A stretch of DNA of 64,000 nucleotides from assembly GCA_026396015.1 (NCBI GenBank), contig JAPLXP010000011.1:15897-79896 (forward strand), given 5' to 3'. The DNA comes from Candidatus Nomurabacteria bacterium. GTDB lineage: Bacteria; Patescibacteriota; Minisyncoccia; Phycocordibacterales; UBA9973. Position numbers and translations under genes: made by a program. Positions 7,045-27,249 of the stretch are shown piece after piece (position 1 is the stretch's first letter; every line of letters starts with the position of its first letter). The notes below the pieces were generated by a model. It saw nothing but the letters and a program-made list of their open reading frames with translations. It had not been told where the DNA came from and did no database searches.

Positions 7045-7047
7045 ATT

Positions 7048-7434: not shown

Positions 7435-7438
7435 ATTT

Positions 7439-7882: not shown

Positions 7883-7886
7883 AACA

Positions 7887-8066
7887 ATGAATAATCCAAA
7901 CAAAGCAATCACAAATAAGGAGGTCGAGGAAGGAAAAATTAAAACCACAATAAATTCCTTTCACTTTGCGGGCGGTATGGAATATGAACCGCTCACGGTC
8001 GAAGCAGGGTCCCGCGAAGAAGCAGAGAAATTGTGGGAAGCACGAAGGGTAAAGGTCAAAGTTTAA
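7887..8066 (+). CDS. small phage ORF (59 aa), absent from the ORF track
   Basis: Read by hand: ATG 7887, TAA 8064-8066. It fills an otherwise 210-bp gap in a tightly packed module. Confidence 0.35.
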   Translation: MNNPNKAITNKEVEEGKIKTTINSFHFAGGMEYEPLTVEAGSREEAEKLWEARRVKVKV

Positions 8067-8092
8067 TTATTATTAATTTTTAGAAAAAATAT

Positions 8093-9082: not shown

Positions 9083-9084
9083 TT

Positions 9085-9417
9085 ATGGAACGTACAACAA
9101 AAACATTACAGACTCCGCTTCGAAAGGAAATCGTACTAAAAGAGTATGTCACCGCGCGTGAGCGAAACGAATTGCGATCAATCCTTCTAGGCAATATGAA
9201 ATTTGACACTGAGGGAAAAGAAATAGGAACGGCAGAACTTTCAGGAAATACACTCGAGATTTCAGAAAGAAAAATGCTTGAAGTGATTGTGACTTCTTAC
9301 GATGGAAGTACAGAAAATATTATTGATCGACTTTTGGATTCAACACCAGAAGAATATGACTTCGCAGTCAAGGAAGCAATGGAGGTCAACAAGGGAAATT
9401 TAATCGCGGCGAAGTAA
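9085..9417 (+). CDS. tail assembly chaperone (gpG-like)
   Basis: 110-aa acidic ORF directly upstream of the tape-measure gene. It ends just after a slippery heptamer. Confidence 0.6.
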   Translation: MERTTKTLQTPLRKEIVLKEYVTARERNELRSILLGNMKFDTEGKEIGTAELSGNTLEISERKMLEVIVTSYDGSTENIIDRLLDSTPEEYDFAVKEAMEVNKGNLIAAK

Positions 9418-9602
9418 CGTACCAATGGGAACGCTACTTCGCCTCAGGTAGAGCCGATCTTACTCACGAAATGGTGCAAGCAGTTATCTGTAGAGAAATG
9501 AAATGGACATATGAAGAATATCTTGAATGTCCGAGTTGGTTTATAGACATGATACTCGACATGCTTCAGTCCGAAGCGAGAGCAAATAACAAAGACAAAT
9601 AA
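9085..9602 (+). CDS. tail assembly chaperone -1 frameshift fusion product (gpGT-like). Made of 9085..9402 joined in the -1 frame to 9402..9602.
   Basis: Hand translation of the -1 frame after the slip: NRGEVTYQWERYFASGRADLTHEMVQ...ARANNKDK*. This matches the conserved G/GT arrangement of tailed phages. Confidence 0.5.
9396..9402 (+). promoter_or_regulatory. -1 programmed ribosomal frameshift slippery site A_AAT_TTA
   Basis: The heptamer AAATTTA lies in the 0 frame of the chaperone ORF as A AAT TTA. The -1 frame stays open for another 66 codons, to the TAA at 9600-9602, 2 nt before the tape-measure ATG. Confidence 0.6.
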
Positions 9603-9604
9603 TT

Positions 9605-12495: not shown

Positions 12496-12501
12496 ACATA
12501 T

Positions 12502-13053
12502 ATGAATTTAAAAAGTGAAATGACAATCAAAGTAAACATAGACACGTTCGTTCTCGCAGAATGGGTGAGTGAAGTAGGGAAAGAAATAGCGATGCTTCGT
12601 GAATATGTGAAGACAGGTAAAAAAAGTATTTTGTCTGTTCTCAGAAAGACCGGAGCGCTTATCAAGCATTCACATCGACACAACTTGATCACCACTGCGG
12701 GGAGAACGGTACTCGCTCGCAGAATTGCAGGAAATACTACATACACAGGCGCAATCAATTATGGATTACTCGGTATGCAAGCAAGTCCGGTCCCTGCGAA
12801 TAGCAGTACACAACTTGGCACTGAAGTCTTTCGTAAACTTGCCGCAAGTCAAACATTCGATAACAACATCGCGTATGTAGATTTTTTCTACACAGCCGGC
12901 GATACAAACGGAACATATACAGAGTTTGGAAATGTGATTGATGGGACAGCAACTGTAAACACCGGGCAGTTGTTTTCTTACGTCGCAACTGGTGGTTGGG
13001 TGAAGTCGAACGCCCAGAGTCTTTTTGTCAGCTGTAAATATACCGTAAGTTAA
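12502..13053 (+). CDS. tail-associated hypothetical protein
   Basis: 183-aa ORF in the tail module. Confidence 0.45.
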   Translation: MNLKSEMTIKVNIDTFVLAEWVSEVGKEIAMLREYVKTGKKSILSVLRKTGALIKHSHRHNLITTAGRTVLARRIAGNTTYTGAINYGLLGMQASPVPANSSTQLGTEVFRKLAASQTFDNNIAYVDFFYTAGDTNGTYTEFGNVIDGTATVNTGQLFSYVATGGWVKSNAQSLFVSCKYTVS

Positions 13054-13054
13054 T

Positions 13055-14179
13055 ATGAAAACTTGGAACGCAGGCGAGATTGTTCTCGCATCAGATTTGA
13101 ATGGAAATTTTATAGAAGCTAGACAGTTTCTATTTGGAGATGGTTCTGACGGTGATGTTACGATTTCAAGTAACACAGGATTGTCTCGAGATATGTACTA
13201 CAACAACCTGACTATTCAGACAGGCGTTGTTTTGAATTCAGCAGGATATAAAATTCACGTCAAAGCAACTCTTACTCAGCAAGGTACAGGCAAGATTGGT
13301 AGATCAGGAAATAATGCAAGCACTGGAAATACAGGTGGAAGCGCAAACAATGGATCAGGAAATAACTCTGTCGCAGGTGGAGCAGGTGGCTCTGGTGTCG
13401 GAGACGGAACACTCAAAGGGTCCGCAGCAGGAAAAAATGGAGCAAGTAGTGGAGGTGGGGGTGGAAATGGAAGTGGTGGATCATCTGGCAGTGCTGGCAC
13501 AACTGGCGATGCAAAATCATCCTGTATTGGAAGTAACGGTGCCGGTGGTGGCAATGGGGGTAACGGTGGCAATGCTACAAACTACGGTGGTGGGGGCGGA
13601 GGTGGTGCAAGCTCGGGAGGTACTGCAACAGGTGCAACCACAAAGCCTCGCAATCTTGTAAACGCCGAATTGATGGTGGATTTTGTGCTTGGAGTAGCAA
13701 CTCCCTATGAAGCAAATGCGGGTAGTGGCTCAGGTGGTGGAGGTGGAGGAGGCGGGGGATTCAATACTGGCCAACCACAATGGAACTATGGCGCAGCCGG
13801 AGGTGGAGGTGGTGGATCTGGATCACACGCTGGGAACTTCTTCATTGCTGCAAAAAATATCGTGATGAGTGGAAGCGGTAATCTTTTTGAATTCATCGGA
13901 GGCGTTGGAGGTAATGGTGGAAATGGGGGAAACGCTGCCGGTGCGACTGGCTCAGTTGGAGGTGCCGGCGGAGGTGGTGGAGCAGGTGCGGGAGGCAATG
14001 GAGGTTCAGGTGTTCTTATTTACGAATCACTCACTGGGACGCTTGCGTACTCACTTGCAGGTGGAGCAGCAGGAACAGTCGGATCAAGTGGCTCTCCTTC
14101 TGCCGGAGGTGGAGCGGGAGCTAACGGTGCCGCAGGTTCTGTCGGAAATGCAGGCACACTTTATACATTTAGTGTTTAA
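13055..14179 (+). CDS. glycine-rich tail fibre / receptor-binding protein with GGNGGN-type low-complexity repeats
   Basis: 374 aa. A conserved N-terminal segment (MKTWNAGEIVLASDLNGNF) is followed by long GGxGG tracts. GC-rich repeats generate spurious ORFs on both strands. Confidence 0.6.
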   Translation: MKTWNAGEIVLASDLNGNFIEARQFLFGDGSDGDVTISSNTGLSRDMYYNNLTIQTGVVLNSAGYKIHVKATLTQQGTGKIGRSGNNASTGNTGGSANNGSGNNSVAGGAGGSGVGDGTLKGSAAGKNGASSGGGGGNGSGGSSGSAGTTGDAKSSCIGSNGAGGGNGGNGGNATNYGGGGGGGASSGGTATGATTKPRNLVNAELMVDFVLGVATPYEANAGSGSGGGGGGGGGFNTGQPQWNYGAAGGGGGGSGSHAGNFFIAAKNIVMSGSGNLFEFIGGVGGNGGNGGNAAGATGSVGGAGGGGGAGAGGNGGSGVLIYESLTGTLAYSLAGGAAGTVGSSGSPSAGGGAGANGAAGSVGNAGTLYTFSV

Positions 14180-14184
14180 AAATT

Positions 14185-14616
14185 ATGGAATCACAAACAT
14201 ACGAAATCAAATGTTCAAAATGCGAAAAAATAGTAGGTCAAAGCTCAATCGAGAATCACAACGGTTTTATTTGTCAGACCTGTGATGACGAAACTCAACT
14301 GACAAATGCTCTTGCGGATGGGAAAAATTATGATCCAACAAATCTTGTGGATGAACGTCCAGAAAAATTTCAAGAAATAATCAAGAAAGCATTGTTTCAA
14401 AATCCATCTGCTTTGCTTTCTCTTAACTTCCATGAAGTCATCGAAGATGCAAAGAAAGAAATTCAAACAACCCTAGGGTTAGATGAACTTGATCATGCAC
14501 AAAAGGTCGAGCTTCTGCAAAAGATTGGAGATGAGGGTGATATCGTCGAAATGAGCGATCAGGATTTAAAAAATAAAGTGGACGTTGAAAAGAAAATACT
14601 TTCTGAGAAAAAATGA
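14185..14616 (+). CDS. zinc-ribbon protein (CxxC...CxxC)
   Basis: 143 aa. It reads CSKCEKIVGQ...FICQTCDDE in the N-terminus and has an acidic C-terminus. It lies between the fibre and holin genes. Confidence 0.45.
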   Translation: MESQTYEIKCSKCEKIVGQSSIENHNGFICQTCDDETQLTNALADGKNYDPTNLVDERPEKFQEIIKKALFQNPSALLSLNFHEVIEDAKKEIQTTLGLDELDHAQKVELLQKIGDEGDIVEMSDQDLKNKVDVEKKILSEKK

Positions 14617-14879
14617 ACCCCGAACAATTCGAACAACTTCAAATAACCATTTCAAAACAGATTGAAATTACTGTTAATGGAAAAATCGACAATCTAAATA
14701 AGAAGGTCGACGACTACATCAAATCTGACAATGAGTGGAAGGATCGCGCCCAGCCAACAATAGAGCTCGGGACGAATGTTCGAGGATTCGGAAAGGTCTT
14801 TGCGTATCTCATAGGAACTGCGGCGGCGGTCGGAGGACTGTTCGCCTTGTTTGAGAGCTTATTCAAAGGCAAAAATTAA
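14613..14879 (+). CDS. putative holin
   Basis: 88 aa. It has a C-terminal hydrophobic helix (VFAYLIGTAAAVGGLFALFESLF), overlaps the upstream gene by 4 nt, and lies directly upstream of the amidase. Confidence 0.45.
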   Translation: MNPEQFEQLQITISKQIEITVNGKIDNLNKKVDDYIKSDNEWKDRAQPTIELGTNVRGFGKVFAYLIGTAAAVGGLFALFESLFKGKN

Positions 14880-14908
14880 AAGATTAATAAAAATAAGTTA
14901 AAAAATAT

Positions 14909-15514
14909 ATGAATATACCATTTACACAAACACCCAACTACGCAACAGGTCCCACTAAGAAGTTAGTTGTAGTGCTCCATCTCACTCTCGGTGCATATAA
15001 CGGAGCTGTCTCATGGCTCTGTAATGGCAACAGACCAAACAGAACTTCTGCCCATTATGTCATTGGAAGAAATGAGGGCGAGAACATTCAACTTGTCAAA
15101 AACACTGACATCGCATGGCACGCCGGTAATGTCAGCAATCCAAATGACAGAGCTAAAAAAGTCATGCTGAAAAATCTTGACGGAACGTACGTGAATCCGA
15201 ATCAATACTGCATCGGCATTGAACTCGCAGCCGGATATGACGTGGATCAAGATGGCACAGTCGAGCCAAATGAAAGTGATATCACAGAATGGCAATACAA
15301 AGCACTCGCAGAGCTGGTGCAATCATTATCAGCAGATGTATCGCTTGGATTTATACTCGATGAAAAAAATATCATTATTCATGGCGACATTGCCGACTAC
15401 AAAGAAAAGCCAGAGATCGTTCGCACCAATCTTCTTGCTCGCCTATTTCCAAATAGACAACCGAGCAAGGACTCAATAAAATCACAAATTATTAGCCTCA
15501 TAAATCAACTTTAA
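14909..15514 (+). CDS. N-acetylmuramoyl-L-alanine amidase (amidase_2/PGRP-type endolysin)
   Basis: 201 aa. It reads AHYVIGRNEGENIQLVKNTDIAWHAGN, characteristic of the T7-lysozyme-like amidase_2 fold. Confidence 0.75.
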   Translation: MNIPFTQTPNYATGPTKKLVVVLHLTLGAYNGAVSWLCNGNRPNRTSAHYVIGRNEGENIQLVKNTDIAWHAGNVSNPNDRAKKVMLKNLDGTYVNPNQYCIGIELAAGYDVDQDGTVEPNESDITEWQYKALAELVQSLSADVSLGFILDEKNIIIHGDIADYKEKPEIVRTNLLARLFPNRQPSKDSIKSQIISLINQL

Positions 15515-15518
15515 TTCT

Positions 15519-15695
15519 ATGCAAATTTACCAATCAGCTTCAAAAATTGTTTTTATTCTCATGGCAGTCGCAACCATCGCGGGCATGCTTATCGGGAAGA
15601 TCGATGCCAAGGATTTCTTGACCCTAGCATCGATGGCATTCGCTTTTTACTTTGCCAATAAGGGGGATGGAAGCCAGCCATTCGCCGGTAAGTAG
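15519..15695 (+). CDS. small membrane protein (58 aa, 2 predicted TM helices), absent from the ORF track
   Basis: Hand translation: MQIYQSASKIVFILMAVATIAGMLIGKIDAKDFLTLASMAFAFYFANKGDGSQPFAGK*. Confidence 0.4.
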   Translation: MQIYQSASKIVFILMAVATIAGMLIGKIDAKDFLTLASMAFAFYFANKGDGSQPFAGK

Positions 15696-15776
15696 CTAGG
15701 TTTTCCACAGGCATTGACGCTTGCTCTATATACAACTATGTGATACTATCTACTATATAGCTTATATTAGATACGT

Positions 15777-16841
15777 ATGAACGATCACACAGACAAATTT
15801 GATAAGAGAATTAAAAGCCCAGAGCCACATATTGTGGCTATTTTGGCTGAAATTGACGGCATAAGAGGGGAATTCAAGTCAGGACTTCGTATGACACCAC
15901 AAGCGATAACCAGCCTCAAAAAGTCTGTTTTGGTGACTTCAGCCGGAGCGTCTACTCGTATCGAGGGGTCAAAATTAAACGACGAGGAGGTGCAAGAAAT
16001 TCTCAGTAAACTTTCAATCTCAAAATTCTCCGATCGTGATTCGCAAGAAGTACAGGGTTACCTCGAGACATTACAAAATGTATTCGACAGCTACCAAGCA
16101 TTGCCACTTCGTGAAGGTGTGATTACTTCACTTCATAATGAATTGATGAAGTATTCCGACAAAGATAAACTCCACAAAGGGAGCTATAAAAAACAGGAAA
16201 ATCTTGTTGGTGTTGCCAATGACAAAGGTGAAGTAACTAAAATTATATTCGAAACTACACCTGCGTGGCTTGCACCGAAGGAAATGACTGAGATTGTTGA
16301 TTGGTCATTTGATGCATTAGAGAAAAATAGATTCCATCCACTGCTTGTCATCGCAAATTTCCTCGTGGAGTTTTTGAAGATTCACCCATTCCAAGATGGA
16401 AACGGTCGTATGTCTCGTGTCCTCACGAACATGCTTCTTTTGCGATCAGGATACCAATTCGTAGAGTACGTCTCACATGAGCAGATTGTTGAGCGAAGAA
16501 AAGATGAATACTATCTTGCACTCCGAAAATCTCAAGAATCGTTCAAAACAGAACACGATACCATCGCACCATGGCTTAATTACTTCCTATCAGTAGTGAA
16601 GGAGCAGGCAACAAAAGCACTCGTATACCTTGAAGAAGAAAAGTTCGAAGATGTACTATCACCAAAACAATACGAAGTATGGAAGTACCTCTCGGGTGTC
16701 GGTGAAGCAAGTCCGGCAGAAATTACCAAAGAGACCGGTATTCTTATTGCAACGGTCAGACAATCACTCCTGCGATTAATGGAGCTAGGTAAGGTAAAAC
16801 GTACCGGTCGAGGTCCGCAAACTAGATATGTAAAAATATAA
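15777..16841 (+). CDS. class II Fic-domain AMPylator with N-terminal autoinhibitory helix and C-terminal winged HTH
   Basis: 354 aa. The Fic motif HPFQDGNGR is present. The upstream inhibitory motif STRIEG fits (S/T)xxxE(G/N). The C-terminal wHTH reads ATVRQSLLRLMELGKV. Confidence 0.85.
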   Translation: MNDHTDKFDKRIKSPEPHIVAILAEIDGIRGEFKSGLRMTPQAITSLKKSVLVTSAGASTRIEGSKLNDEEVQEILSKLSISKFSDRDSQEVQGYLETLQNVFDSYQALPLREGVITSLHNELMKYSDKDKLHKGSYKKQENLVGVANDKGEVTKIIFETTPAWLAPKEMTEIVDWSFDALEKNRFHPLLVIANFLVEFLKIHPFQDGNGRMSRVLTNMLLLRSGYQFVEYVSHEQIVERRKDEYYLALRKSQESFKTEHDTIAPWLNYFLSVVKEQATKALVYLEEEKFEDVLSPKQYEVWKYLSGVGEASPAEITKETGILIATVRQSLLRLMELGKVKRTGRGPQTRYVKI

Positions 16842-16845
16842 ATTT

Positions 16846-19107
16846 ATGGCACTACCAGATAACGAAAAACGAGACATTATAAAATACATTGAAGCCGACA
16901 AGCCATTGCCGGATAAATACCGCTTTCAACTTTTTGAAGATAAGCGTGAAGTTGAGCTTGTGTGGAATGGAAAAACAAATGATGTCACAAATGTCGTTCT
17001 CCCTTTTCAAATCATTGAGCAGATTGATGAGCCAAGAAGTGAGAAAGAAATAAAACTCCAAGCAACACTTTTTGATATTGATACTCGTGGCCGACAACTA
17101 AAAGGTTGGACGAATAAACTTATCTGGGGTGACAACAAATTGATTCTTTCAAGCCTCAAGAATGGTCCACTTCGACAAGAAATTGAGGAGCAAGGAGGTA
17201 TCAAGCTAATTTATATAGATCCACCTTTTGACGTAGGTGCTGATTTTTCAATGGATATAGAAATCGGGGACGAAGCTTTTACAAAACAACCATCGGTACT
17301 AGAAGAACTTGCTTATCGTGATACGTGGGGTAAGGGAGCTGATAGCTTTATCGCTATGATTTATGAACGTCTTCTATTAATGAGAGATCTCTTAGCACCT
17401 GAAGGAAGTATATTTGTGCATTGCGACACTCGCGTGAATAGTTACATACGCTTAGTCTTAGAGGAAATTTTTGGTAACGATAATTTTCACAACGAAATTG
17501 TCTGGCAAAGGAGTTCTAGTGGTAAAACCATTTCAAAAAATCTTTCAAGAGATACAGATACGATATTTTGGTACTCAAAATCTAATGACTACATAATAAA
17601 TTCGGTTTACCAGCCTCTCTCCGATACCACCATTGCCATGTACAGCATGGATGATAAAGATGGTAGAGGAAAATATCGTTTATACCCACTTCAAAAAACA
17701 GGAAGCCCGGGACCAGAAACAACATATGAATACGAAGATAATACCGGCAAAATGTGGAAGTGTCCTAAAAAAGGATGGAGGATGAGATTTCAAAAACTAA
17801 AAGCTTTGGAAAATGACGGAAGACTCTATTTTGAGGGCAATACTTTAGCTGAGAAAGCATACTGGAATGAGCGTGAAAATGAAGGAAGACTAGCTAATAA
17901 TTTATGGAATGATATATCTAATTTACAAGGATCTACTCCAGAGATTCTTGGTTATCCTACCCAAAAACCAGAGAAATTGTTGGAAAGAATTATTACCATG
18001 TCAACAAATAAGGACGATTTAGTGGCAGATTTTTTCTGTGGATCTGGTACTACACTAGCTGTTGCTGAAAAACTTGGACGTAAATGGATAGGATCTGACC
18101 TTGGTAAATTTGGAATCCATACTACTCGTAAGCGTATGATTGGAGTGCAACGCCAACTTAAAAAGGAAGACAAAAATTATCGAGCATTTGAAATTCTTAA
18201 TCTTGGTAAGTATGAGCGTCAACATTATATTGGTGTAAATACGAATCTTCGAGAAGAAGAAAAACAAAAACAGCTTGCTCAAAAAGAAAAAGATTTTGTA
18301 TCTCTCGTTTTATCAGCTTATAAGGCTGAGGAATGTGAAGGATTCAAAACTTTCTACGGAAAAAAGAATTCTCGACTAGTCGCAATTGGTCCTATAAATT
18401 TACCCCTTTCACGACTCTTTGTGGAAGAAGTGATAAAAGAATGCCAAGAAAAGCAGATCACAAAAGTTGATATTCTCGCTTTTGAATTTGAGATGGGCTT
18501 GTTTCCAAATATTCAGGAAGAAGCAAAAGACAAAGGTATTGATTTAGGACTTAAATACATACCTAGAGACGTTTTTGATAAGCGAGCAATCGAAAAGAAT
18601 CAAGTAGTTTTCAATGATGTTTCTTATATTGAAGTTAAACCAATTGTTAAGAAACGATCGGTAGCAATTGAGCTAGTTGATTTTTCTGTTTTTTATAACC
18701 AAGATTCCCTAAAAGAAGTTGAGGAAAACTTAAAAGCCGGTGGCAAAAAGCTTTTAATTGAAAATGGACAAATCATTAAAATTTCTAAAGATAAAGATGG
18801 TATTCTTGAGCGAGAAATTTTAACCAAGAAATGGACTGATTGGATCGATTATTGGGCCATTGACTTCAACTTTGAAAGTAAAAAGGAAATAATCGGCATT
18901 AAAGATAAAAGTGGGGAAGTGCAAGAATTCTGGACTGGTGACTATGTCTTTGAGAATGAATGGCAATCTTTTCGTACAAAAAAAGATCGCGGTTTAGAGA
19001 TGATAAGCATCGCGCGAGAATTGGAATCAGGTAAAAGAAAAATTGCAATCAAGGTCGTCGACATATTCGGTAACGATACGATGAAAATCATCGAGATCAC
19101 AGTATAA
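16846..19107 (+). CDS. mod: type III restriction-modification Mod subunit (N6-adenine DNA methyltransferase, beta-class motif order)
   Basis: 753 aa. Motif IV DPPF (IYIDPPFDV) precedes motif I FxGSGT (DFFCGSGTTLAVAE). There is a 4-bp gap to the res helicase gene. Confidence 0.8.
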   Translation: MALPDNEKRDIIKYIEADKPLPDKYRFQLFEDKREVELVWNGKTNDVTNVVLPFQIIEQIDEPRSEKEIKLQATLFDIDTRGRQLKGWTNKLIWGDNKLILSSLKNGPLRQEIEEQGGIKLIYIDPPFDVGADFSMDIEIGDEAFTKQPSVLEELAYRDTWGKGADSFIAMIYERLLLMRDLLAPEGSIFVHCDTRVNSYIRLVLEEIFGNDNFHNEIVWQRSSSGKTISKNLSRDTDTIFWYSKSNDYIINSVYQPLSDTTIAMYSMDDKDGRGKYRLYPLQKTGSPGPETTYEYEDNTGKMWKCPKKGWRMRFQKLKALENDGRLYFEGNTLAEKAYWNERENEGRLANNLWNDISNLQGSTPEILGYPTQKPEKLLERIITMSTNKDDLVADFFCGSGTTLAVAEKLGRKWIGSDLGKFGIHTTRKRMIGVQRQLKKEDKNYRAFEILNLGKYERQHYIGVNTNLREEEKQKQLAQKEKDFVSLVLSAYKAEECEGFKTFYGKKNSRLVAIGPINLPLSRLFVEEVIKECQEKQITKVDILAFEFEMGLFPNIQEEAKDKGIDLGLKYIPRDVFDKRAIEKNQVVFNDVSYIEVKPIVKKRSVAIELVDFSVFYNQDSLKEVEENLKAGGKKLLIENGQIIKISKDKDGILEREILTKKWTDWIDYWAIDFNFESKKEIIGIKDKSGEVQEFWTGDYVFENEWQSFRTKKDRGLEMISIARELESGKRKIAIKVVDIFGNDTMKIIEITV

Positions 19108-19111
19108 ATTT

Positions 19112-21793
19112 ATGGCACTCCATCAAAAATTTCCAAAATCTCCGTATACTATTCTTGATCCAGCAATTCGCTGGTTTCCTGCTGATGAAAATCTTAGAGA
19201 CAAGGGCTACGAAAAATTACTTCCGCCGCTTGTAGCAGAACTTCGAAAGAAGATAAAAGAGTGGCGTCTTTCTGAATACGAAGGAGCTAGTGAAACTAGT
19301 AAAGCACTTTTGAAATGGTGGTTCTTAACAGACCATCCAACTCCAACTAAAGATGGTGAGATGTTTCTTTTTCAATACTATTTTGCTCAACGTGAAGCAG
19401 TAGAAACTGTTATCTGGCTATATGAAGTAGCTAAAGCTCATGATAAATATGATCTTATACGTTTTGATACATCAGGAGCAATATCACCGGGAATGTTTGA
19501 CGAGACTTGGACTCGGTATATCGTGAAGATGGCAACTGGTTCAGGAAAAACAAAAGTATTGAGTCTTATTCTCGCATGGAGTTATTTTCATAAACTCTAC
19601 GAAAAAGATTCCGAGCTTGCTCGTAACTTTTTAGTAATCGCCCCAAACATCATTGTATTGGATCGAATACGTACAGACTTTGATGGTCTTAAAATTTTCT
19701 TTGCCGATCCAGTTGTTCCAGACAATGGATACCGAGGTCAAGAATGGCGTAACGACTTTCAACTTACTCTTCATATTCAAGATGAAATCGGAACTGTAAG
19801 AAAAACGGGTAATATTTTTCTTACCAACATTCACCGTGTTTATGATGGTGCTACAGAATCTGCTAGTTTTGAAGATGGAGATACGATGGACTACTTTCTT
19901 GGTAAAAAGCCCACAGGTGCAACCAATGAATCGAAATTAGATCTTGGAGATATTGTACGCAACATTGATGAGCTTGTTGTCTTAAATGATGAAGCACACC
20001 ATATTCACGATCCGAGACTTGCATGGTTCAAGGCTATTGAAGATATTCATAACCGCCTTAAAATGAAGGGGGGTAAGTTAGGTTTGCAAGTAGATGTTAC
20101 AGCAACTCCAAAACATACCAATGGATCAATCTTCGTTCAGACGGTTAGTGACTACCCACTTGTGGAAGCAATTCATCAAAACGTAGTGAAGCATCCGGTT
20201 CTGCCCGATCCAGCAAGTCGCGCAAAATTACAAGAACATAAGACATCAAATTACACTGAAAAATACAAGGATTACATCCACCTTGGATATTTGGAATGGA
20301 AAAAAGTCTATGATGAGCATCTTAAGCTAAATAAGAAATCGGTACTCTTTATCATGACTGACGATACAAAAAACTGTGACGAAGTGGCTGAATATCTTGA
20401 AAACACCTACCCCGATCTCAAAGATGCTGTTCTTGTGATTCACACAAAAGACAACGGTGAAATCTCAGAAAGTGCTACAGGGAAAAAAGAAGAGGAGCTC
20501 AAGGAACTCCGTAAAAATGCCAATACAATCGATCACCTCGACAATCCATATAAAGTTATTGTTTCCGTGCTTATGCTTAAAGAAGGATGGGATGTTAGAA
20601 ATGTGACTACGATTGTAGGCTTGCGCGCATACAGCTCCAAAAGCAACATCCTACCAGAGCAGACACTTGGTAGAGGTCTTCGTCGAATGTATCGCGATCC
20701 TGATCTAGCTGAAATGGTGAGCGTTGTCGGTACTGATGCCTTTATGGATTTCGTAGAATCAATTAAAAGTGAGGGTGTTGAACTTGAACATCGTAAAATG
20801 GGTGAAGGAACAGGTCCGAAAGCACCACTTGTAGTTGAAATTGACCGTGAGAATATGAAAAAGAATATTGAAGAATTGGAGATCGAGATACCTGTGCTGA
20901 CACCCCGTATCTATCGAGAATATAAAAATCTCTCCCAGCTCGATGTACCAAAATTTAGTCATCAAAAGATTAATACTAAAGAATTTACTGAGGAGGAAAA
21001 ACGTGAGATCGTCTTCCGAGATATAACAAGTGGCGACATAACACATAAAACGGAATTGGATAGTAATTTTATACCAAATTACCAGAGCGTGATTGGTTAT
21101 TTTACACAGGTAGTAATGAAGGAACTTAGACTGGTAAGTGGGTATGACGTTCTATATGGTAAGGTCAAAGAATTTATTCAAGATCATCTTTTTACAAAAC
21201 CTATTGAGCTTGAAAACTTAAACTCACTTCGTAATCTATCGGAAATAGAAGCTTCCCGTACTATTATTGAGACATTCAAAAAAGAGATTAATGCTCTTAC
21301 GGTCCTTGATAAAGGGGAGGCTGAGATCCGCGATTATATAAAAATCAGCAAGAGTCGTCCCTTTGTGGTAAAGGATCAGGGTTATATTGTTCCGAAAAAA
21401 AGTGTCTTTAATAAAATTATAGGTGACAGTCATTTAGAGCTTGAATTTGCGAGTTTTCTTGAGGGATGTGACGATATAATCTCATACGCAAAAAACTATT
21501 TTGCTGTTCACTTCAAGATTGATTATAAAAATGCTGACGGTAGTATTTCTGATTATTACCCAGATTTTATTGTAAAAGTCTCAGCCAAAGAATACTACGT
21601 AGTTGAGACGAAAGGTCGGGAAGATTTGGATGATATAGAGAAAATCAAACGCCTGAAACAGTGGTGTGATGATGTGAATGCAAATCAACGCGATGCAAAG
21701 TACAACATGCTTTATATCAAGCAGGAAGACTGGGAAGCACAGCAACAAAAGCCTCGAAACTTTAGAGAAGTCATTCGAGGATGGAGTAAATAA
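19112..21793 (+). CDS. res: type III restriction enzyme Res subunit (SF2 helicase + C-terminal PD-(D/E)XK nuclease)
   Basis: 893 aa. Walker A MATGSGKTKV, DEAH (LNDEAHH), and the C-terminal PDF...VETK endonuclease motif are present. Confidence 0.8.
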   Translation: MALHQKFPKSPYTILDPAIRWFPADENLRDKGYEKLLPPLVAELRKKIKEWRLSEYEGASETSKALLKWWFLTDHPTPTKDGEMFLFQYYFAQREAVETVIWLYEVAKAHDKYDLIRFDTSGAISPGMFDETWTRYIVKMATGSGKTKVLSLILAWSYFHKLYEKDSELARNFLVIAPNIIVLDRIRTDFDGLKIFFADPVVPDNGYRGQEWRNDFQLTLHIQDEIGTVRKTGNIFLTNIHRVYDGATESASFEDGDTMDYFLGKKPTGATNESKLDLGDIVRNIDELVVLNDEAHHIHDPRLAWFKAIEDIHNRLKMKGGKLGLQVDVTATPKHTNGSIFVQTVSDYPLVEAIHQNVVKHPVLPDPASRAKLQEHKTSNYTEKYKDYIHLGYLEWKKVYDEHLKLNKKSVLFIMTDDTKNCDEVAEYLENTYPDLKDAVLVIHTKDNGEISESATGKKEEELKELRKNANTIDHLDNPYKVIVSVLMLKEGWDVRNVTTIVGLRAYSSKSNILPEQTLGRGLRRMYRDPDLAEMVSVVGTDAFMDFVESIKSEGVELEHRKMGEGTGPKAPLVVEIDRENMKKNIEELEIEIPVLTPRIYREYKNLSQLDVPKFSHQKINTKEFTEEEKREIVFRDITSGDITHKTELDSNFIPNYQSVIGYFTQVVMKELRLVSGYDVLYGKVKEFIQDHLFTKPIELENLNSLRNLSEIEASRTIIETFKKEINALTVLDKGEAEIRDYIKISKSRPFVVKDQGYIVPKKSVFNKIIGDSHLELEFASFLEGCDDIISYAKNYFAVHFKIDYKNADGSISDYYPDFIVKVSAKEYYVVETKGREDLDDIEKIKRLKQWCDDVNANQRDAKYNMLYIKQEDWEAQQQKPRNFREVIRGWSK

Positions 21794-21795
21794 TA

Positions 21796-24590
21796 TGGAT
21801 AAAGGTACACACTTCTATAAATGCGATTTTCAGGTACATACTCCACGGGATGCAAACTGGGTAGGTACTGAAGCCACCACACAAGCAGAACGTAAAACTT
21901 ATGCAGAGGAGCTTATTCAGTCGTGTCGTATAAAAGGCATTGGAGCAATTGCAATAACCGACCATCACGATTTTACTTTTTTCCCTTATGTTAAAGCAGC
22001 TTCAGTTTCTGAAGTGGATGCGGTAGGAAGTCCTATTCCAAAACGAGATCAAATAGTTGTCTTTCCCGGCATCGAATTAACCCTTTCCTCGCCACCTTGC
22101 CAAGCCATTCTATTGTTAGATTCAGAATTTGATGAAACAAAATTCGGTGATATTCTCACAACCCTTACTATCGCTCCTACCGATAAGGTAAAAAGTAAAT
22201 TAGCAAGCGTAGATTCTGTATCACCAGCATCAATAACTGGATTTAATGACCTAGAGAATAAGCTTAATCAGCATGCATGGCTGAAAGGTAAATTTATCAT
22301 ACTTCCAAATGTTACTACTGCTGGACATAAAACACTTTTTCGTGATGGGTATGCAAAACACTATAAAGAGATGCGGTGTGTAGGAGGATATGTGGATGGC
22401 GATTATTCAAAATCAAGTGATGGCTATAAAAATATCCTAGAAGGTCGTCAACAAAATAATGGCTATAAATCCATTGCTGTTTTTCAGACCTCAGATAACC
22501 GCAAGCGTGATCATTCTGATCTTGGAACCTATATCACTTACGTTAAATGGTCAGAACCAACTGCTGAAGCGTTGCGACAGGCGTGCCTAGCAAAAGAATC
22601 ACGACTCTCTCTTGCTGAGCCAGAGCTTCCTAGCGTATGGATTACATCTGTCACAGTTTCAAATTCTAAGTTCCTTGGACGTGTTGATTTAGATTTAAAC
22701 CAACAATACAACGCCATCATCGGTGGGCGTGGAACTGGTAAATCCACAATCCTAGAATATTTACGCTGGGGTCTTTGTGATCAACCAATAGAAAGCGAGG
22801 ATATGGATATTGTACAAAATAAGCGCAAGAATTTAATCGATAATACGCTACAGAAATTTGATGGAGAAGTGCATGTTGAATTTCTTCTCAACGATGTGAA
22901 TCATATTGTAAAACGAAACTCAAAGAAACAAGAGATTTTGCTTAAAATTGCCGATGGAGATTTTGCTCCAGCTACTGAACAACAAGTAAGAAATTTGCTT
23001 CCAATTCAAGCGTACAGTCAGAAACAACTGAGTAGTGTTGGTGTGAGAATTGATGAGTTAAAACGCTTTGTAGAGCTTCCGATAAAACAAGAACTTGATC
23101 AGATTCGATCCGATGTTCGTGATAATGCTGCTAAAATGCGGTCATCATACGGTGATCTTATCCGAATGAGTGAGATCGAGACTGAAGTTGAAAAAAATAA
23201 TGTTGAAATTGCTTCAGTAACTGAGCAGCTTGATAAGTTAAGAAAAAGCCTCAAGGGTTTGTCTAAAGAAGATCAGAAGACCATCAACCAGAAAGCAAAA
23301 TACGATGAGGAAGAAACTATTATTGGTGATTTACAGAATGAACTCTCAACAGCACAAGGAAGTGTTGAGTCGTTAGAGGCAGAATTTTATAAAGATGTAG
23401 CGACACAAGAGGAAGAAGCTGAACTAGAAAACACGGCGATCATCAAAGATATCAAGAAAAAGTTTGCATCAAAGTTTGTGGAGATAAAAGCGGGGGTTGG
23501 AGCATTATCTAGCTTATTTAAACCAGCATCATTAAAAGATATAAATGATGCAATTAAGGCTTGGAATAAACTCAAGGTGGCGTTTGACAAAAAATACGAG
23601 GCGGCGAAAGTAAAAGCAAAAGTTAATCAGCAACAACTAGATCAAATACAAATACATGAAAAGCGTATCGGTATACTTAAGAAGCAACAAACCGATAAAC
23701 GTAATGCTATTACAGCTCTGGGAAATCCTGAGGCTACCTATAAAGGCTTACGTACAAAATGGGATACTTTACATAACCTAAAAGTTGTAGCCATTGAGAA
23801 ACAATGTGAGCAATTTACTGCTCTTTCTGGTGGATTGATTAAGGCGGAAATTAAAAATAGTCTTGATGTTGATGGTTTTACACAACAACTCAAAACAGCT
23901 TTTTCTGGTATGAATATCAAGGAGGATAAAATTGAAAAAATCTGTAAGATTTTGCTTGAAGCAACTGATCCGTTCACAGAATGGAATAACATATTATCAG
24001 AACTCAGATCCCTCGCTCTCTATTCTGATGAAGGAAATGATGCCTTACCAGAAACACCTATACTTAATGGTAAGTGTTTCTTTATTAATACAGAATTAAA
24101 GAGGATTGCGACCCAGTTTGATTCCGCTCGCTGGATTAATCTTTCCATGGCAGAATTGGAATTCAATCCAAAATTCCACTATTGCACAAATAAAACAAAG
24201 GATGAATACATAGAATTTTCTGATGCATCGGCTGGTCAACAAGCTACCGCCTTACTTACTGTACTTTTGAATCAGCCGGGAGCTCCTCTTATTATTGATC
24301 AACCAGAAGATGATATTGATAGTAAGATGATCAAAGAAATTATTGAACGAGTGTGGAAAGCAAAAAGTAAACGTCAACTTATCTTTGCCAGCCATAGTGC
24401 AAATTTTGTCGTCAACGGAGATGCAGAGCTGGTAGTTTGTTGCGACTACGTCAAAGCAGGAGATCAGACACACGGTGTAATTAAAGCAATTGGCGCAATT
24501 GATAATGCCATAATTAAAGAAGAAATTACCTTAGTTACTGAAGGCGGTCGACAAGCATTCAAGCTTCGTATGGATAAATATGGTTTTTAA
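21796..24590 (+). CDS. PHP-domain phosphoesterase fused to an SbcC/SMC-like coiled-coil ABC ATPase (Ppl-like candidate defence protein)
   Basis: Start reassigned to the ATG at 21796, because the track ORF start at 21678 overlaps res. PHP motifs are present: DFQVHTPRD, ITDHHDF and GIELT. Walker A reads IIGGRGTGKST. About 300 aa are coiled-coil. The signature SAGQQ, Walker B LIIDQPEDDID and H-loop FASHSAN follow. Confidence 0.7.
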
Positions 24591-24604
24591 TCTTAAATAA
24601 AGAT

Positions 24605-25357
24605 ATGTCTGAATACTACAACGCAAACAGAACACGAAACATTTACGATCCAGCCAGTTTGGAGCCTTTCAAGTTGTCACGGTCCAAGATCGAGGGGTAC
24701 ATGAACTGTCCAAAGTGCTTTTATATGGATCGTAGACTTGGCGTGGGGCAACCACCGGGCTTCCCATTTGCCCTTAATTCGGCCGTAGACCACCTTCTAA
24801 AGAAAGAATTCGACATACACAGGGCTAAGCAGGTCCCGCACCCGCTTATGAAGGCGTACGGCCTTGATATGGTCCCTTTTCAGCATGAAAAGCTGAATGA
24901 GTGGCGCGAGAATTTCAAAGGCATCCAGTACCACCACGAGCCTACAAATTTTATAATGACAGGAGCTGTTGATGACTTGTGGGTCAATAGGGAAGGGGAG
25001 GTCACTGTAGTTGACTATAAAGCTACAAGCAAACCAGCGAAGGTGACACTCGATGCTGATTGGCAGATCGGATACAAACGACAAATGGAAATGTACCAGT
25101 GGCTACTTCGCAAGATTGGATTGAAAGTTTCCGACACTGGATATTTTGTATACTGCAATGGAAAAACAGATCGTGAAGCGTTCGATGGAAAACTAGATTT
25201 TGATATTGATCTTCTTCCATACACTGGCGATGATTCATGGGTGGGTGGAATTTTACATGAAATAAAACAGTGTCTTGATGGTGACATGCCCGAGTCGGGT
25301 CTTTCATGTGATTATTGTAGTTACAGAAAAGCTGCAAATCTCGTTGATCGAAAATAA
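24605..25357 (+). CDS. Cas4/RecB-like PD-(D/E)XK nuclease with Cys clusters
   Basis: 250 aa. N-terminal CPKC; core GAVDD ... EVTVVDYK (D ... D/ExK); RecB-family QxxxY (YKRQMEMYQW); C-terminal CDYCSY. It starts 14 bp downstream of the PHP-ATPase gene. Confidence 0.7.
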   Translation: MSEYYNANRTRNIYDPASLEPFKLSRSKIEGYMNCPKCFYMDRRLGVGQPPGFPFALNSAVDHLLKKEFDIHRAKQVPHPLMKAYGLDMVPFQHEKLNEWRENFKGIQYHHEPTNFIMTGAVDDLWVNREGEVTVVDYKATSKPAKVTLDADWQIGYKRQMEMYQWLLRKIGLKVSDTGYFVYCNGKTDREAFDGKLDFDIDLLPYTGDDSWVGGILHEIKQCLDGDMPESGLSCDYCSYRKAANLVDRK

Positions 25358-25364
25358 TAAATAT

Positions 25365-25520
25365 ATGTTAGAAGATAAAGATCCAGAAGAAATAATAGAG
25401 ATTGCCGAAATAGCTCAAAACCAAGGCTTAGACATTGAAGATGCCGAAAAAGTAAAAGAACTTATGGATGAAGAAGGTCTTGATGAGGATGAGGCTTCTG
25501 AACTGATTGATTTACTATAA
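25365..25520 (+). CDS. small hyper-acidic protein (51 aa; about 45% D/E)
   Basis: Inner ATG of track ORF 25275..25520, chosen to avoid overlapping the nuclease gene: MLEDKDPEEIIEIAEIAQNQGLDIEDAEKVKELMDEEGLDEDEASELIDLL. Confidence 0.45.
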   Translation: MLEDKDPEEIIEIAEIAQNQGLDIEDAEKVKELMDEEGLDEDEASELIDLL

Positions 25521-25526
25521 TTCTAA

Positions 25527-25537
25527 AATGTGGGAGT
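25527..25537 (+). repeat. AATGTGGGAGT motif copy 1
   Basis: Direct read: aatgtgggagttta. Confidence 0.8.
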
Positions 25538-25579
25538 TTATCCACAGTATCCTTTATTTGCTTGTGTTTGCTTTTTATA

Positions 25580-25595
25580 AATGTGGGAGTATAAT
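25580..25595 (+). repeat. AATGTGGGAGT motif copy 2, immediately followed by TATAAT
   Basis: Direct read: aatgtgggagtataat. Confidence 0.8.
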
Positions 25596-25742
25596 CAAAA
25601 TACCTGATGATCTTGTGCTCGTGCCAGAGCAGGGAAGTAGGGGGAGTCTAAAAAACTCATTATAAGTATGGCCTCTGTCCCAGTCAGGGATAGCCCACAG
25701 TAGGCGTTGATAACCGGATCAAAGCCTTCTTTCGTTCCGAGG

Positions 25743-25751
25743 TGTGGGAGT
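25743..25751 (+). repeat. TGTGGGAGT motif copy 3 (ggtgtgggagttaaag), 77 nt upstream of the integrase ATG
   Basis: Direct read. Confidence 0.8.
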
Positions 25752-25827
25752 TAAAGATGTTGTTCTCGGAAAACAATCCTAGAACTCTCAAACCAAAAGG
25801 CTTTTAATCAACTAATAAAAAAACTTT

Positions 25828-26760
25828 ATGTTACTTCGAGATGCAATTGAAAATTATTTGCTCTGGAAGGGAACGGAGACTCGCACAGCCGCGAAAGTCT
25901 ACCGACCATTCCTCGAGCATTTCTACAGCTTTGTTGGTAATAAAGATACTCTCGAAATAAAGCTCGAGGAGATCTCAGCGTTCCGAGCGTCATTGAAATT
26001 AAAATACAATGATGGCAATATTTCCAACCACAACAATGTGATCAAGAACTTCTACAAATGGTTAGAAGCGAATCGTATAACTACGGTCCACCCATTCTTG
26101 ATCCGTAACCCAAGGTTCCAACAACCGGAACGACCAGTAGCAACACCTGAAGAAGTCGCGAAGATGTGCGCAACTCTCAATCCAAATTCTTATAGTGATT
26201 TGATGAGGCTTGTAGCAATCAAACTCATGTGGGAATCAATGATACGCGTTAGTGAGCTTATAGACCTAAATGTTAGCGACATACTGTCGCAAAATACATA
26301 CACGGAAATAATAGGCAAGAAGAATTATAAGAAACGATGGATTATGTGGTCGCCAGAAACCCATCAACTCCTACTTCAATATATAGCAAAGAGAAAAATG
26401 TTGTTCGAACACGAAGCATTATTCGCACACGAAAGTGCTGGTGTCAGTCAACGAATGGCTACTAGAAGTGTTGAACGATGGATGAAGATCGCGCGAGAAA
26501 AAGCAAAACTGACTCAAGACATATCTTGTCACGCATTGCGACATGGTGGTGCTCATGAGTTAGTAAAGAAAGGTGCGAGTCTGAAATTCTTAGGATTGAT
26601 TCTAGGACATTCAGATACGAACCCTCGAGCGGGAATGCAATACCTCCGATTCAGTAAAGAAGAATCACTAGATGTTGTGGAAAGATTTGTGGGACTTAGA
26701 TTCTCAAGAAATGTTTCCGAGCCTCTAGGTATAGCATTTAATGCCTACAACATGGTTTAA
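25828..26760 (+). CDS. int: tyrosine site-specific recombinase (phage integrase / XerD-like)
   Basis: 310 aa. The C-terminal catalytic region reads HALRHGGAHELV ... LGHSDTNPRAGMQYLR (H-x-x-R, LGH, Tyr). Confidence 0.85.
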   Translation: MLLRDAIENYLLWKGTETRTAAKVYRPFLEHFYSFVGNKDTLEIKLEEISAFRASLKLKYNDGNISNHNNVIKNFYKWLEANRITTVHPFLIRNPRFQQPERPVATPEEVAKMCATLNPNSYSDLMRLVAIKLMWESMIRVSELIDLNVSDILSQNTYTEIIGKKNYKKRWIMWSPETHQLLLQYIAKRKMLFEHEALFAHESAGVSQRMATRSVERWMKIAREKAKLTQDISCHALRHGGAHELVKKGASLKFLGLILGHSDTNPRAGMQYLRFSKEESLDVVERFVGLRFSRNVSEPLGIAFNAYNMV

Positions 26761-26771
26761 GCTGATTTGTG

Positions 26772-26782
26772 AATGTGGGAGT
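26772..26782 (+). repeat. AATGTGGGAGT motif copy 4, 12 nt after the integrase stop and 20 nt before the next ORF
   Basis: Direct read: aatgtgggagttttgtgctaaatt. Confidence 0.8.
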
Positions 26783-26801
26783 TTTGTGCTAAATTGGACT
26801 A

Positions 26802-26996
26802 ATGAGCAGTACGAGTATACCGAAAGCCAAGGGCGGTCGCGGGAAAGTTGAATTACTACGAAATAAAGCGATCGTAACCCTATATGAGACAGATCCAAAG
26901 AGCTACAACACAAACACGTTGGGGAAGCTATTTAGCCGTGACAGGAAGACCGTAAAGGGTATTCTGGAGAGATTTGCACCTTCAAAGCAGAAATAG
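26802..26996 (+). CDS. small basic HTH-like protein (possible excisionase/regulator)
   Basis: 64 aa. A helix-turn-helix-like segment is present: TNTLGKLFSRDRKTVKGIL. Confidence 0.4.
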   Translation: MSSTSIPKAKGGRGKVELLRNKAIVTLYETDPKSYNTNTLGKLFSRDRKTVKGILERFAPSKQK

Positions 26997-27164
26997 CCGA
27001 TTCTAGTTTATCCACTCATTGACGACGGAACTAGGGAAATGCGCTTGCTATATAAAAGTCATTGGTTTATGCTGTATGTGTAGATCCTTGAAAACTCAAA
27101 TCCTCCACGAAACTCGGGTGTAGGGGAGACTTTTATAAAGCCGCATTTAGCGGCATAAAGAATA

Positions 27165-27177
27165 CGACACAGTGTCG
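27165..27177. promoter_or_regulatory. Perfect palindrome CGACAC-A-GTGTCG (operator-like). A second ACGACACT half-site and TATATAAT lie 15-25 bp downstream.
   Basis: Direct read of cgacacagtgtcg ... ttacgacactatataat. Confidence 0.35.
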
Positions 27178-27218
27178 CACAATATATCTTTTACGACACT
27201 ATATAATAAAATAAAGCG

Positions 27219-27249
27219 CAGGATATTGTGATGGGTATCCTGCGCCTAT
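27219..27249. terminator. hairpin GCGCAGGATA-loop-TATCCTGCGC (10-bp stem) at the element/host junction region
   Basis: Direct read; the T/A-rich flank is weak. Confidence 0.4.

Follow-up and report, generated by a model that had tools for sequence, protein, structure and literature searches.

A probable cargo slot for defence genes in a prophage of a Candidatus Nomurabacteria bacterium

Gene content of the locus

The stretch of DNA analysed here, referred to as the window, covers 64,000 nucleotides (nt) of a Candidatus Nomurabacteria assembly (GCA_026396015.1, contig JAPLXP010000011.1, positions 15,897 to 79,896) and contains what is probably a prophage, in which a variable cargo slot (15,696..24,604) lies between the lysis genes and a block that includes an integrase gene. 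The slot is 8.9 kb long in this element and is bordered by two sharp homology breakpoints. It holds four genes on the plus strand, which encode a class II Fic protein (15,777..16,841), the Mod and Res subunits of a type III restriction-modification (R-M) system (16,846..19,107 and 19,112..21,793), and a 931-amino-acid (aa) ATPase of the TrlF family (21,795..24,590).

Upstream of the slot, a siphovirus-type structural and lysis module extends over 24-15,514 on the plus strand, as judged from the list of open reading frames (ORFs), Pfam and PHROG. It comprises the portal, protease, major capsid, tail and tape measure proteins, followed by an 88-aa holin-like protein and an Amidase_2 endolysin. 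A first reading of this DNA, made from the letters and their ORFs and called here the sequence-only reading, had described an element without morphogenesis genes after the holin and amidase. Indeed, the PHROG matches to portal, protease, capsid, tail and tape measure proteins are all upstream of 15,514, and no morphogenesis gene was found after that position. The ORFs which that reading listed are all present on the plus strand where it had placed them, and its domain calls are backed by profile matches and motifs.

Cellular genes begin at about 27,300 and are on the minus strand (FAD oxidoreductase, arginine decarboxylase, DnaJ, DnaK, ribosomal proteins). The DnaK of the window is 87% identical to Candidatus Nomurabacteria proteins and 81-84% identical to Paceibacterota proteins, and a Candidatus Nomurabacteria metagenome-assembled genome (MAG; GCA_026396755.1, contig JAPLWF010000004.1) encodes a protein with 100% identity to the 931-aa ATPase. 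These matches identify the host as a bacterium of the Patescibacteria, or candidate phyla radiation (CPR), namely Candidatus Nomurabacteria, in agreement with the small-genome host proposed earlier.

The phage belongs to a family with many relatives. A search with the capsid protein retrieved 58 IMG/VR viral contigs with the same capsid-to-tail module, and a search with the amidase retrieved 7 close viral contigs and 15 genome loci, with 70-84% identity across these 22. The genome loci are nearly all labelled Saccharibacteria, Paceibacterota, Magasanikbacteria, Parcubacteria or "Patescibacteria group", the exceptions being two unclassified loci and one short contig binned as Pseudobdellovibrionaceae. 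No match to the structural module was found in INPHARED by megablast.

Borders and composition of the cargo slot

Comparison with about 20 related phages and prophages of Patescibacteria, designated below by locus numbers where they have to be told apart, places the true cargo, that is Fic, Mod, Res and TrlF, at 15,696-24,595. On the left, DNA homology breaks off at 15,694-15,710 relative to L090, L180 and L088, and at 16,848-16,880 relative to L181 and L091, which also carry Fic. On the right, homology resumes at 24,595-24,604 in each of the five relatives whose sequence extends to this point. The breaks coincide, to within about 15 bp, with the same two gene borders. The situation is well illustrated by L090, whose tail proteins are 85-88%, 58-aa peptide 83% and PD-(D/E)XK nuclease 88% identical to those of the window, with no homology between these anchors. 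From anchor to anchor, the cargo measures 6.5-8.9 kb in seven elements, and a packaging limit is one possible reason for this constant size.

The flanks of the slot are conserved, at 48-92% identity, and consist of the 58-aa peptide on the left and of the PD-(D/E)XK nuclease, an acidic protein and the integrase on the right. The sequence-only reading had assembled seven items into one island, counting the ATPase and the nuclease as a pair. Its assignment of Fic, Mod, Res and the ATPase to the cargo holds, whereas three of the seven items, the 58-aa peptide, the nuclease and the acidic protein, are backbone genes in the relatives, like the integrase.

The base composition, which the sequence-only reading had proposed to compare, also sets the cargo apart. 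The GC content is 43.6% in the structural and lysis module, 38.0% in the cargo, 41.8% in the block from the nuclease to the end of the element, and 37.6% in the host, and the GC content at third codon positions of Mod, Res and TrlF is 28-31%, compared to about 36-45% for most structural genes. Fic has a backbone-like GC content of 41.4%, which agrees with its recurrence as the first gene of the slot. The tetranucleotide usage of the cargo correlates with that of the host at r = 0.92 and with that of the structural module at r = 0.87. Across the cargo, the window agrees with two independent assemblies at 100% identity, with L189 over 15.4 kb and with L190 over 5.7 kb.

The genes are tightly packed, with gaps of 4, 4, 1, 14 and 7 nt between Fic, Mod, Res, the ATPase, the nuclease and the acidic protein, respectively. 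The gap of 81 nt before Fic holds a weak promoter-like site (15,740-15,768); the promoter scan as a whole was at chance level, with 36 sites found and 38 expected. No repeats flanking the cargo were detected in a search for direct and inverted repeats between 15.4 and 27.4 kb. Besides the slot, the interval between the nuclease and the acidic protein and that between the acidic protein and the integrase are smaller variable spots.

Cargo of related elements

Across the relatives, at least 8 different gene sets are found in the slot. L098 carries an NYN-like gene, a different type III Mod/Res pair (27-28% identical) and SIR2 with HerA, and the combined contigs L062+L183 are its viral-contig counterpart. 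L090, L095, L096 and L097 carry an unannotated pair of 547-578 aa and 167-183 aa (10,743-12,987 in L090) and two type II methyltransferases; the PDC-S06 ATPase is also present in the slots of L090, L096 and L097, L095 ending early. L086 has a C5 methyltransferase and a restriction enzyme, together with a trio of genes without defence annotation, and L088 has a methyltransferase and a nicking endonuclease (restriction enzyme). In L181, a Fic protein 75% identical to that of the window is accompanied by a complete type I R-M system and a cyclase of the cyclic-oligonucleotide-based anti-phage signalling system (CBASS) with a two-transmembrane (2TM) effector, and there is no TrlF. Finally, L180 carries a type IV-like restriction enzyme, two methyltransferases, a PD-T4-1/PDC-S36-like protein and PDC-S19.

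The PADLOC matches in the cargo, for which no background rate was computed, include R-M types I-IV, CBASS, SIR2-HerA, PDC-S06, PDC-S19, SoFic and Ppl-like proteins. The structural and lysis genes are kept from element to element and the cargo in the same slot is non-homologous, so that, as the sequence-only reading had anticipated, the region is not uniformly conserved along with the structural genes. Its description of the island as an anti-phage arsenal is likewise consistent with the comparison, since most of the cargo in the slot matches known or candidate defence systems.

Some of the cargo is unannotated. The trio of L086 (14,673-19,158), also found in L092 (12,136-16,775), consists of a GrpE-like protein of ~170 aa, a protein of ~830 aa with an Hsp70 ATPase domain (Pfam HSP70, 1.3e-86) and a protein of 487-532 aa. 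No PADLOC match was obtained for any of its members, and the trio is a candidate for an uncharacterised defence system. Large single proteins of 1281, 1273 and 817 aa occupy L093 (14,608-18,453), L094 (14,888-18,709, minus strand) and L065 (10,833-13,286), respectively. For these proteins and the pair of L090, L095, L096 and L097, nothing significant was found in Pfam (four tested) or in PADLOC (those tested).

The Fic protein and the type III pair

The first cargo gene encodes a class II Fic protein similar to the AMPylator SoFic, with a C-terminal winged-helix-like region. It matches Pfam Fic (3e-14, 54 bits against a cut-off of 24) and PADLOC SoFic (2.5e-38, residues 41-348 aligned with 47-346 of 361). 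The core motif HxFx(D/E)GNGRxxR is present as HPFQDGNGRMSR at residues 203-214, and the inhibitory motif (S/T)xxxE(G/N) as STRIEG at residues 59-64. The position of STRIEG, N-terminal to the core, makes this protein a class II Fic, and the intact core and STRIEG had already been recognised in the sequence-only reading. The protein resembles SoFic in these two features, in its length, in its C-terminal helix-turn-helix-like region and in the nearly full-length PADLOC match. Among solved structures, the best relative is the Fido domain protein 8uqu (1.2e-32), and SoFic itself (3eqx) reaches only 2.4e-5. Fic is semi-conserved in the phage family; the same protein follows the 58-aa peptide in L091 and L181, with 75% identity.

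Mod and Res, also correctly named at the outset, form a type III R-M pair. Mod matches PADLOC MTase_III (2.7e-113) and Pfam N6_N4_Mtase (1.4e-45), and its motif IV (DPPF at 125) precedes motif I (FCGSG at 397), the order of the beta-class N6 methyltransferases. Res matches Pfam ResIII (2.9e-14) and RE_endonuc (6.9e-5) and PADLOC REase_III (1.8e-20), and combines a superfamily 2 (SF2) ATPase (GSGKT at 143, DEAH at 293) with a C-terminal PD..ExK endonuclease (PD..ETK at 817-834). The pair is similar to type III systems of the EcoP15I kind in having mod followed by an adjacent, co-directional res, the beta-class motif order, and an SF2 ATPase with a PD..ExK nuclease. It differs from them in two respects: it resides in a phage of a CPR host, and the best-fitting NCBIfam model of Res (BPTD_3080 family) reaches 284 bits, well short of its cut-off of 800. 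One sequence, TATAAATTTATGGCACT, spans the start codon and the first codons in both mod and res (16,834-16,860 and 19,100-19,126).

The TrlF-family protein

The last cargo gene encodes a protein with a divergent PHP-like N-terminal domain, followed by an SMC/Rad50-type ATP-binding cassette (ABC) head into which a long coiled coil is inserted. A longer ORF starting at 21,678 overlaps Res; the homologues all begin with MDKG, which corresponds to the start used here. The protein exceeds the cut-off of the NCBIfam TrlF family NF045780 (473.1 bits against 350, residues 3-930 aligned with 1-944 of the model) and fails that of the Ppl equivalog NF042955 (162.6 bits against 1000). PADLOC does report a Ppl match (3e-41); in both PADLOC and NCBIfam, the best of the two stretches matching Ppl is C-terminal, at about residues 798-927. 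Ppl was rejected as the identity of this protein given the TrlF score and the Ppl score far below its cut-off.

The full-length AlphaFold2 model, with a mean predicted local distance difference test (pLDDT) score of 78, shows the ABC head split by the coiled coil. Its top Foldseek matches are the heads of Smc, Rad50, JetC, MukB and RecN, with E-values down to 5.6e-12, and the corresponding sequence motifs are a Walker A at 310, SAGQ at 812 and LIIDQPE at 832. The sequence-only reading had called the protein a PHP-ATPase; the SMC/ABC-type NTPase is well supported, whereas the PHP part is weakly supported. The N-terminal domain scores 18 bits against Pfam PHP, below the cut-off of 26.4, and a search of PDB sequences with a profile of 61 TrlF N-terminal domains found nothing. 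In a model of the N-terminal 275 residues (pLDDT 60), the top 14 Foldseek matches are all PHP proteins, but they are weak (E-values of 1e-3 to 8e-2, template modelling scores of about 0.3). Residues that are invariant in this domain across the family are D11-x-Q13-x-H15, T55-D-H-H-D59, G92-x-E94 and S233-D-x-R236. Neither TrlF nor the PD-(D/E)XK protein has a sequence relative among solved structures.

The closest characterised parallel is Ppl, an end-sensing exonuclease that is inhibited by binding of nucleoside triphosphates (NTP; reviewed in PMC12904381). Like this single-gene defence protein, TrlF is one chain of ~900 aa that combines an ABC/SMC-type domain with an N-terminal PHP-type domain, the latter putative in TrlF, and it is found without a conserved partner in neighbourhoods of defence genes. 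TrlF differs in being a separate NCBIfam family with altered PHP motifs (DxQxH, SDxR) and DQ in the Walker B motif.

TrlF is widespread, with 2,408 homologues at E-values of at most 1e-10 among those scored. Scanning metagenome contigs with a TrlF alignment gave 80 loci with 42-81% identity. An R-M gene occurs within 6 kb of at least 21 of 75 distant TrlF loci and of 16 of the 32 loci of 9 kb or more, as counted with a crude panel. The immediate neighbours (n=117) include mad2, type I and type IIG components, and at most 7 of them match any one PADLOC family. The only genes of the window that recur near the 80 loci are Fic, in the closest lineage, and scattered Mod and Res genes. Judged by these neighbourhoods, TrlF stands alone, without a conserved partner. 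In particular, the PD-(D/E)XK gene is present in the 6-kb flanks of 0 of the 80 loci, and the two genes are adjacent elsewhere in the viral contig L059/L185 only. The PD-(D/E)XK protein was therefore rejected as a partner of TrlF, as it also follows unrelated genes in the relatives, and the ATPase/nuclease pair of the sequence-only reading reflects adjacency without a conserved association.

Fic (74-77% identical) and TrlF (80-81% identical) recur together in L059, L101, L102, L103 and L104, where the genes between them are either a different R-M system (two methyltransferases with further genes) or a RadC-like gene alone. These loci lack the amidase and capsid of the window phage, and L059 carries a serine recombinase. 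In L160, a distant TrlF (45%) is directly followed by a Mod/Res pair 62% and 68% identical to that of the window. The occurrence of Fic and TrlF in another element and of Mod and Res beside another TrlF supports the mobility of these modules. The earlier proposal that the island can be mobilised fits with this, as the cargo rides on an apparently intact temperate phage, and Fic and TrlF are found at 74-81% identity in the element with the serine recombinase.

Flanking genes and element end

The left flank is the lysis cassette. The 88-aa protein (14,613..14,879, plus strand) has one C-terminal hydrophobic segment at residues 61-83 and no Pfam or PHROG match, and is labelled a holin because of its position and shape. 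In the relatives, small genes of 62-123 aa precede the endolysin; they belong to other sequence clusters, and the 88-aa ORF clusters with none of them. The endolysin (14,909..15,514, plus strand) is an N-acetylmuramoyl-L-alanine amidase (Pfam Amidase_2, 3e-19; PHROG amidase/endolysin), and both genes are part of the backbone. The 58-aa membrane peptide (15,519..15,695, plus strand), with one clear and one weaker hydrophobic segment, forms the left anchor of the slot. It directly follows the endolysin in the relatives, with 48-88% identity, also in L180 and L181, whose endolysin is of a different type. Its presence after the endolysin throughout, even when the endolysin is of another type, indicates that it is the last gene of the lysis cassette rather than cargo.

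The right anchor is a Cas4-like PD-(D/E)XK nuclease (24,605..25,357, plus strand; Pfam PDDEXK_1, 1.1e-14), for which the NCBI annotation gives a shorter product of 218 aa. It contains CPKC at 35, DYK at 137, QMEMY at 160 and CDYC at 235, and thus shares the D..DYK..QxxxY core and four cysteines with the Cas4/RecB-family nucleases of phages. It differs from Cas4 in scoring below the cut-off of TIGR00372 (27.8 bits against 65; PADLOC Cas4, 4.5e-9), in having no cas genes among the neighbouring ORFs, and in being conserved backbone at a slot border. It is 76-88% identical in L088, L090, L098, L180, L181, L182 and L183, and is preceded in other elements by HerA, PDC-S06, PDC-S19, the 2TM effector or Res.

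The nuclease is followed by a hyper-acidic backbone protein of 51 aa (25,365..25,520, plus strand), with 21 Asp/Glu, 3 Lys and an isoelectric point of 4.05. It has no Pfam, PADLOC or PHROG family, and its size and charge recall small DNA-mimic inhibitors of phages. It is 82-92% identical in L088, L093, L098, L180, L181 and L183, a range above that of the amidase (70-84%), and a more divergent copy is found in L096.

The next backbone gene encodes a Xer-like tyrosine integrase (25,828..26,760, plus strand; Pfam Phage_integrase, 6.4e-23; PHROG integrase, 1.3e-32) with HALRH at 235 and Tyr272, which is 81-88% identical and in the same position in the viral contigs L180/L186 and L183. The intergenic region before it (25,521..25,827, plus strand) contains three copies of TGTGGGAG, at 25,529, 25,582 and 25,743, and a fourth copy is found at 26,774, between the integrase and a 64-aa gene. 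This 8-mer usually occurs as AAATGTGGGAGT. Two or three copies precede the integrase in L180/L186, L181 and L183, the first two being 53-54 nt apart, and one copy follows it in L180/L186 and L183, L181 ending before that point. The repeat may be a regulatory or recombinase-binding site. The 64-aa basic backbone protein (26,802..26,996, plus strand) has no family match, directly follows the integrase in L180 and L183 with 83-87% identity, and is possibly a DNA-binding or excision factor. The order of nuclease, acidic protein, integrase and 64-aa protein is kept wherever the locus of a relative reaches far enough.

At the smaller variable spots of this block, a gene similar to SAM synthetase (MetK), as judged from its N-terminal sequence, lies between the acidic protein and the integrase in L180 (11,734-12,732) and L181 (11,764-12,699), and other relatives have an S49 peptidase and a TrpR-like gene. 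Cluster c8 was considered as a set of integrase homologues and rejected, as its 288-314-aa proteins beside the acidic protein are S49 peptidases and those of ~106 aa are TrpR-like.

The right end of the mobile element was located at 27,189..27,198, where its sequence finishes in ..TTTTACGACA and host sequence follows. Contig JAPLWF010000004.1 (L189) is 100% identical to the window from 11,795 to 27,198 and then diverges over its final 115 bp; homology ends at 27,193 for L180, itself ending about 300 bp past the 64-aa gene, and at 27,203 for L183. The 115-bp tail has no match among the sequences compared, and may be an alternative junction, either of a free circular phage or of a second insertion site. 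A strong terminator-like hairpin is found just past the element end (27,216-27,245). No tRNA genes or Rfam families were found in the window, so there is no tRNA-type att site. In the closest relative of the host, L187 (DnaK 97%), the gene order matches as far as the arginine decarboxylase gene, beyond which other genes are found, so that no empty site and no attB could be defined.

On the far side of the lysis cassette, between it and the tail genes, a 374-aa protein (13,055-14,179) consists largely of Gly-rich runs (GGxGG, GNGG), with a local GC content of 50% and a GC skew of +0.31. L090 shares only the first ~80 residues of this protein, which is probably of the tail-fibre type.

Discussion

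We interpret the region as the cargo slot, or defence hotspot, of a family of temperate siphoviruses with Patescibacteria as hosts, present here as a prophage in Candidatus Nomurabacteria, and we give this interpretation a probability of about three in four. From the sequence we infer that the cargo has an anti-phage function and is expressed during lysogeny. Fic, Mod, Res, the ATPase head and the integrase all retain intact catalytic motifs. Hotspots of this kind have been described for P2 and P4 prophages (PMC9122126 and PMC13586616) and share with the present one a fixed slot between core genes, non-homologous and mostly defensive cargo, sharp borders and rapid swapping. The present case differs in the unrelated phage family, with siphovirus-type structural genes, in the Patescibacteria host, in the position of the slot between the lysis cassette and the nuclease/acidic-protein/integrase block, and in being known from sequence alone. 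The kind of hotspot is thus established and the instance is new for CPR phages; in the literature, we found no description of a comparable defence hotspot in Patescibacteria.

Within the family, cassettes are exchanged by recombination at the two gene borders of the slot. In the mechanism that we propose for the cargo, the class II Fic would be kept inactive by the glutamate of its own STRIEG motif and, upon infection, would AMPylate cell proteins and lead to abortive infection, the mode of action reported for SoFic (PMC12249575). Mod would methylate the DNA of the host and the prophage and Res would cleave incoming unmethylated DNA, while TrlF, by analogy with Ppl, would sense DNA ends and degrade foreign DNA. 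As a net effect, the lysogen would be protected from other phages and the phage would move the arsenal from host to host.

Several observations weigh against this interpretation. The cargo is co-directional with the late genes, its gaps are only 1-14 nt and the promoter scan is at chance level, which makes expression during lysogeny uncertain. The left end of the prophage lies beyond the window, and no att repeat was defined. The Fic protein departs from SoFic in falling far under the cut-off of the curated NCBIfam SoFic equivalog NF046030 (45.7 bits against 550) and in lacking an AS1-like gene, AS1 being the small downstream antitoxin of E. coli SoFic (PMC12249575): Mod begins 4 nt after the stop codon of Fic. 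In TrlF, two canonical metal-binding His of the PHP domain are replaced throughout the family, the first His of HxH by Gln and the His of DxH by Arg. Its Walker B motif reads D-Q-P-E (residues 835-838), again invariably in the family, with Gln after the Asp where ABC ATPases usually carry the catalytic Glu. These altered but invariant motifs make both the nuclease and the ATPase activity of TrlF uncertain. By analogy, the Gln could point to nucleotide sensing rather than fast hydrolysis, which would agree with the inhibition of Ppl by NTP. The literature search for TrlF retrieved no experimental record, only unrelated uses of the letters.

Among the other explanations, we consider it unlikely that Fic, the R-M pair and TrlF form one coupled system, in which Res makes DNA ends, TrlF senses them and degrades from them, Fic acts as a backup toxin and the R-M genes are an exchangeable specificity part. 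The packing of the four genes, with gaps of 4, 4 and 1 nt, would suit such a system, as would the recurrence of Fic and TrlF around a different R-M system or a RadC-like gene in L059 and L101-L104, the Mod and Res genes directly after TrlF in L160, and the presence of R-M genes within 6 kb in at least half of the longer TrlF loci. In addition, the 3'-OH ends that Ppl requires are reported to come from another nuclease (PMC12904381). Nevertheless, the co-occurrence of Fic and TrlF is limited to one close lineage (at least 74% identical) and is explained by shared descent, for most of the distant TrlF homologues no Fic could be detected, and for many of them no R-M system was found in the flanks. 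L181 combines Fic with type I R-M and CBASS in the absence of TrlF. Defence genes also cluster in islands anyway, and the co-occurrence counts have no background control.

Somewhat less likely still is that the cargo serves the phage itself, either as genes expressed with the late genes to destroy the DNA of the host or of competitors in lytic growth or as an addiction module, made of R-M and Fic, that stabilises the prophage. R-M systems and Fic/Doc toxins can indeed act as addiction modules, the cargo lies directly downstream of the late and lysis operon in the same direction, and no convincing promoter or terminator of its own was found. On the other hand, the abortive-infection-type systems in the slot of the relatives (CBASS, SIR2-HerA, SoFic) are ill-suited as lytic weapons, and Fic is preceded by the 81-nt gap with its weak promoter-like site. 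Moreover, the P2/P4 slot pattern, to which the present slot is similar, was shown experimentally to protect lysogens (PMC9122126).

It is highly improbable that a chromosomal defence island landed in or beside a decaying prophage, or that the locus is an assembly join: although the GC content and tetranucleotide usage of the cargo are nearer to the host than to the structural module, and there is a break at 27,198 in the NCBI assembly of this element, the backbone is found on both sides of the slot in the IMG/VR contigs L180, L181 and L062+L183 and in MAGs of several Patescibacteria lineages, the backbone ORFs are all intact, the size of the cargo is constrained, and the two independent assemblies agree fully with the window across the cargo.

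Returning to the defence hotspot, a broader version of this interpretation, which we regard as doubtful, is that the slot serves as a recombination hotspot throughout a phage family of Patescibacteria-wide distribution, with three possible readings for its genes. The Cas4-like nuclease and the hyper-acidic protein, as a possible DNA mimic, may aid the exchange of cassettes or shield the phage DNA from the cargo. The unannotated gene sets in the slot, that is the trio, the pair and the single proteins of 817-1281 aa, may represent novel defence systems particular to CPR phages, and TrlF may be the end-degrading partner of whichever restriction enzyme adjoins it.

The genomes of Patescibacteria are very small. 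For the most part, these bacteria are without CRISPR-Cas and are considered to depend on R-M systems, and prophages and R-M islands have been noted in them (PMC12455944). The concept of prophage defence hotspots being established, the present case extends it rather than comes as a surprise. The slot sets the uncharacterised TrlF family in a clear defence context, and its anchors, the 58-aa peptide and the PD-(D/E)XK gene, provide a handle for mining metagenomes for defence genes in a scarcely cultured phylum. If the interpretation is true, temperate phages that shuttle cassettes of 6.5-9 kb would be a main route by which CPR cells gain and lose immunity.

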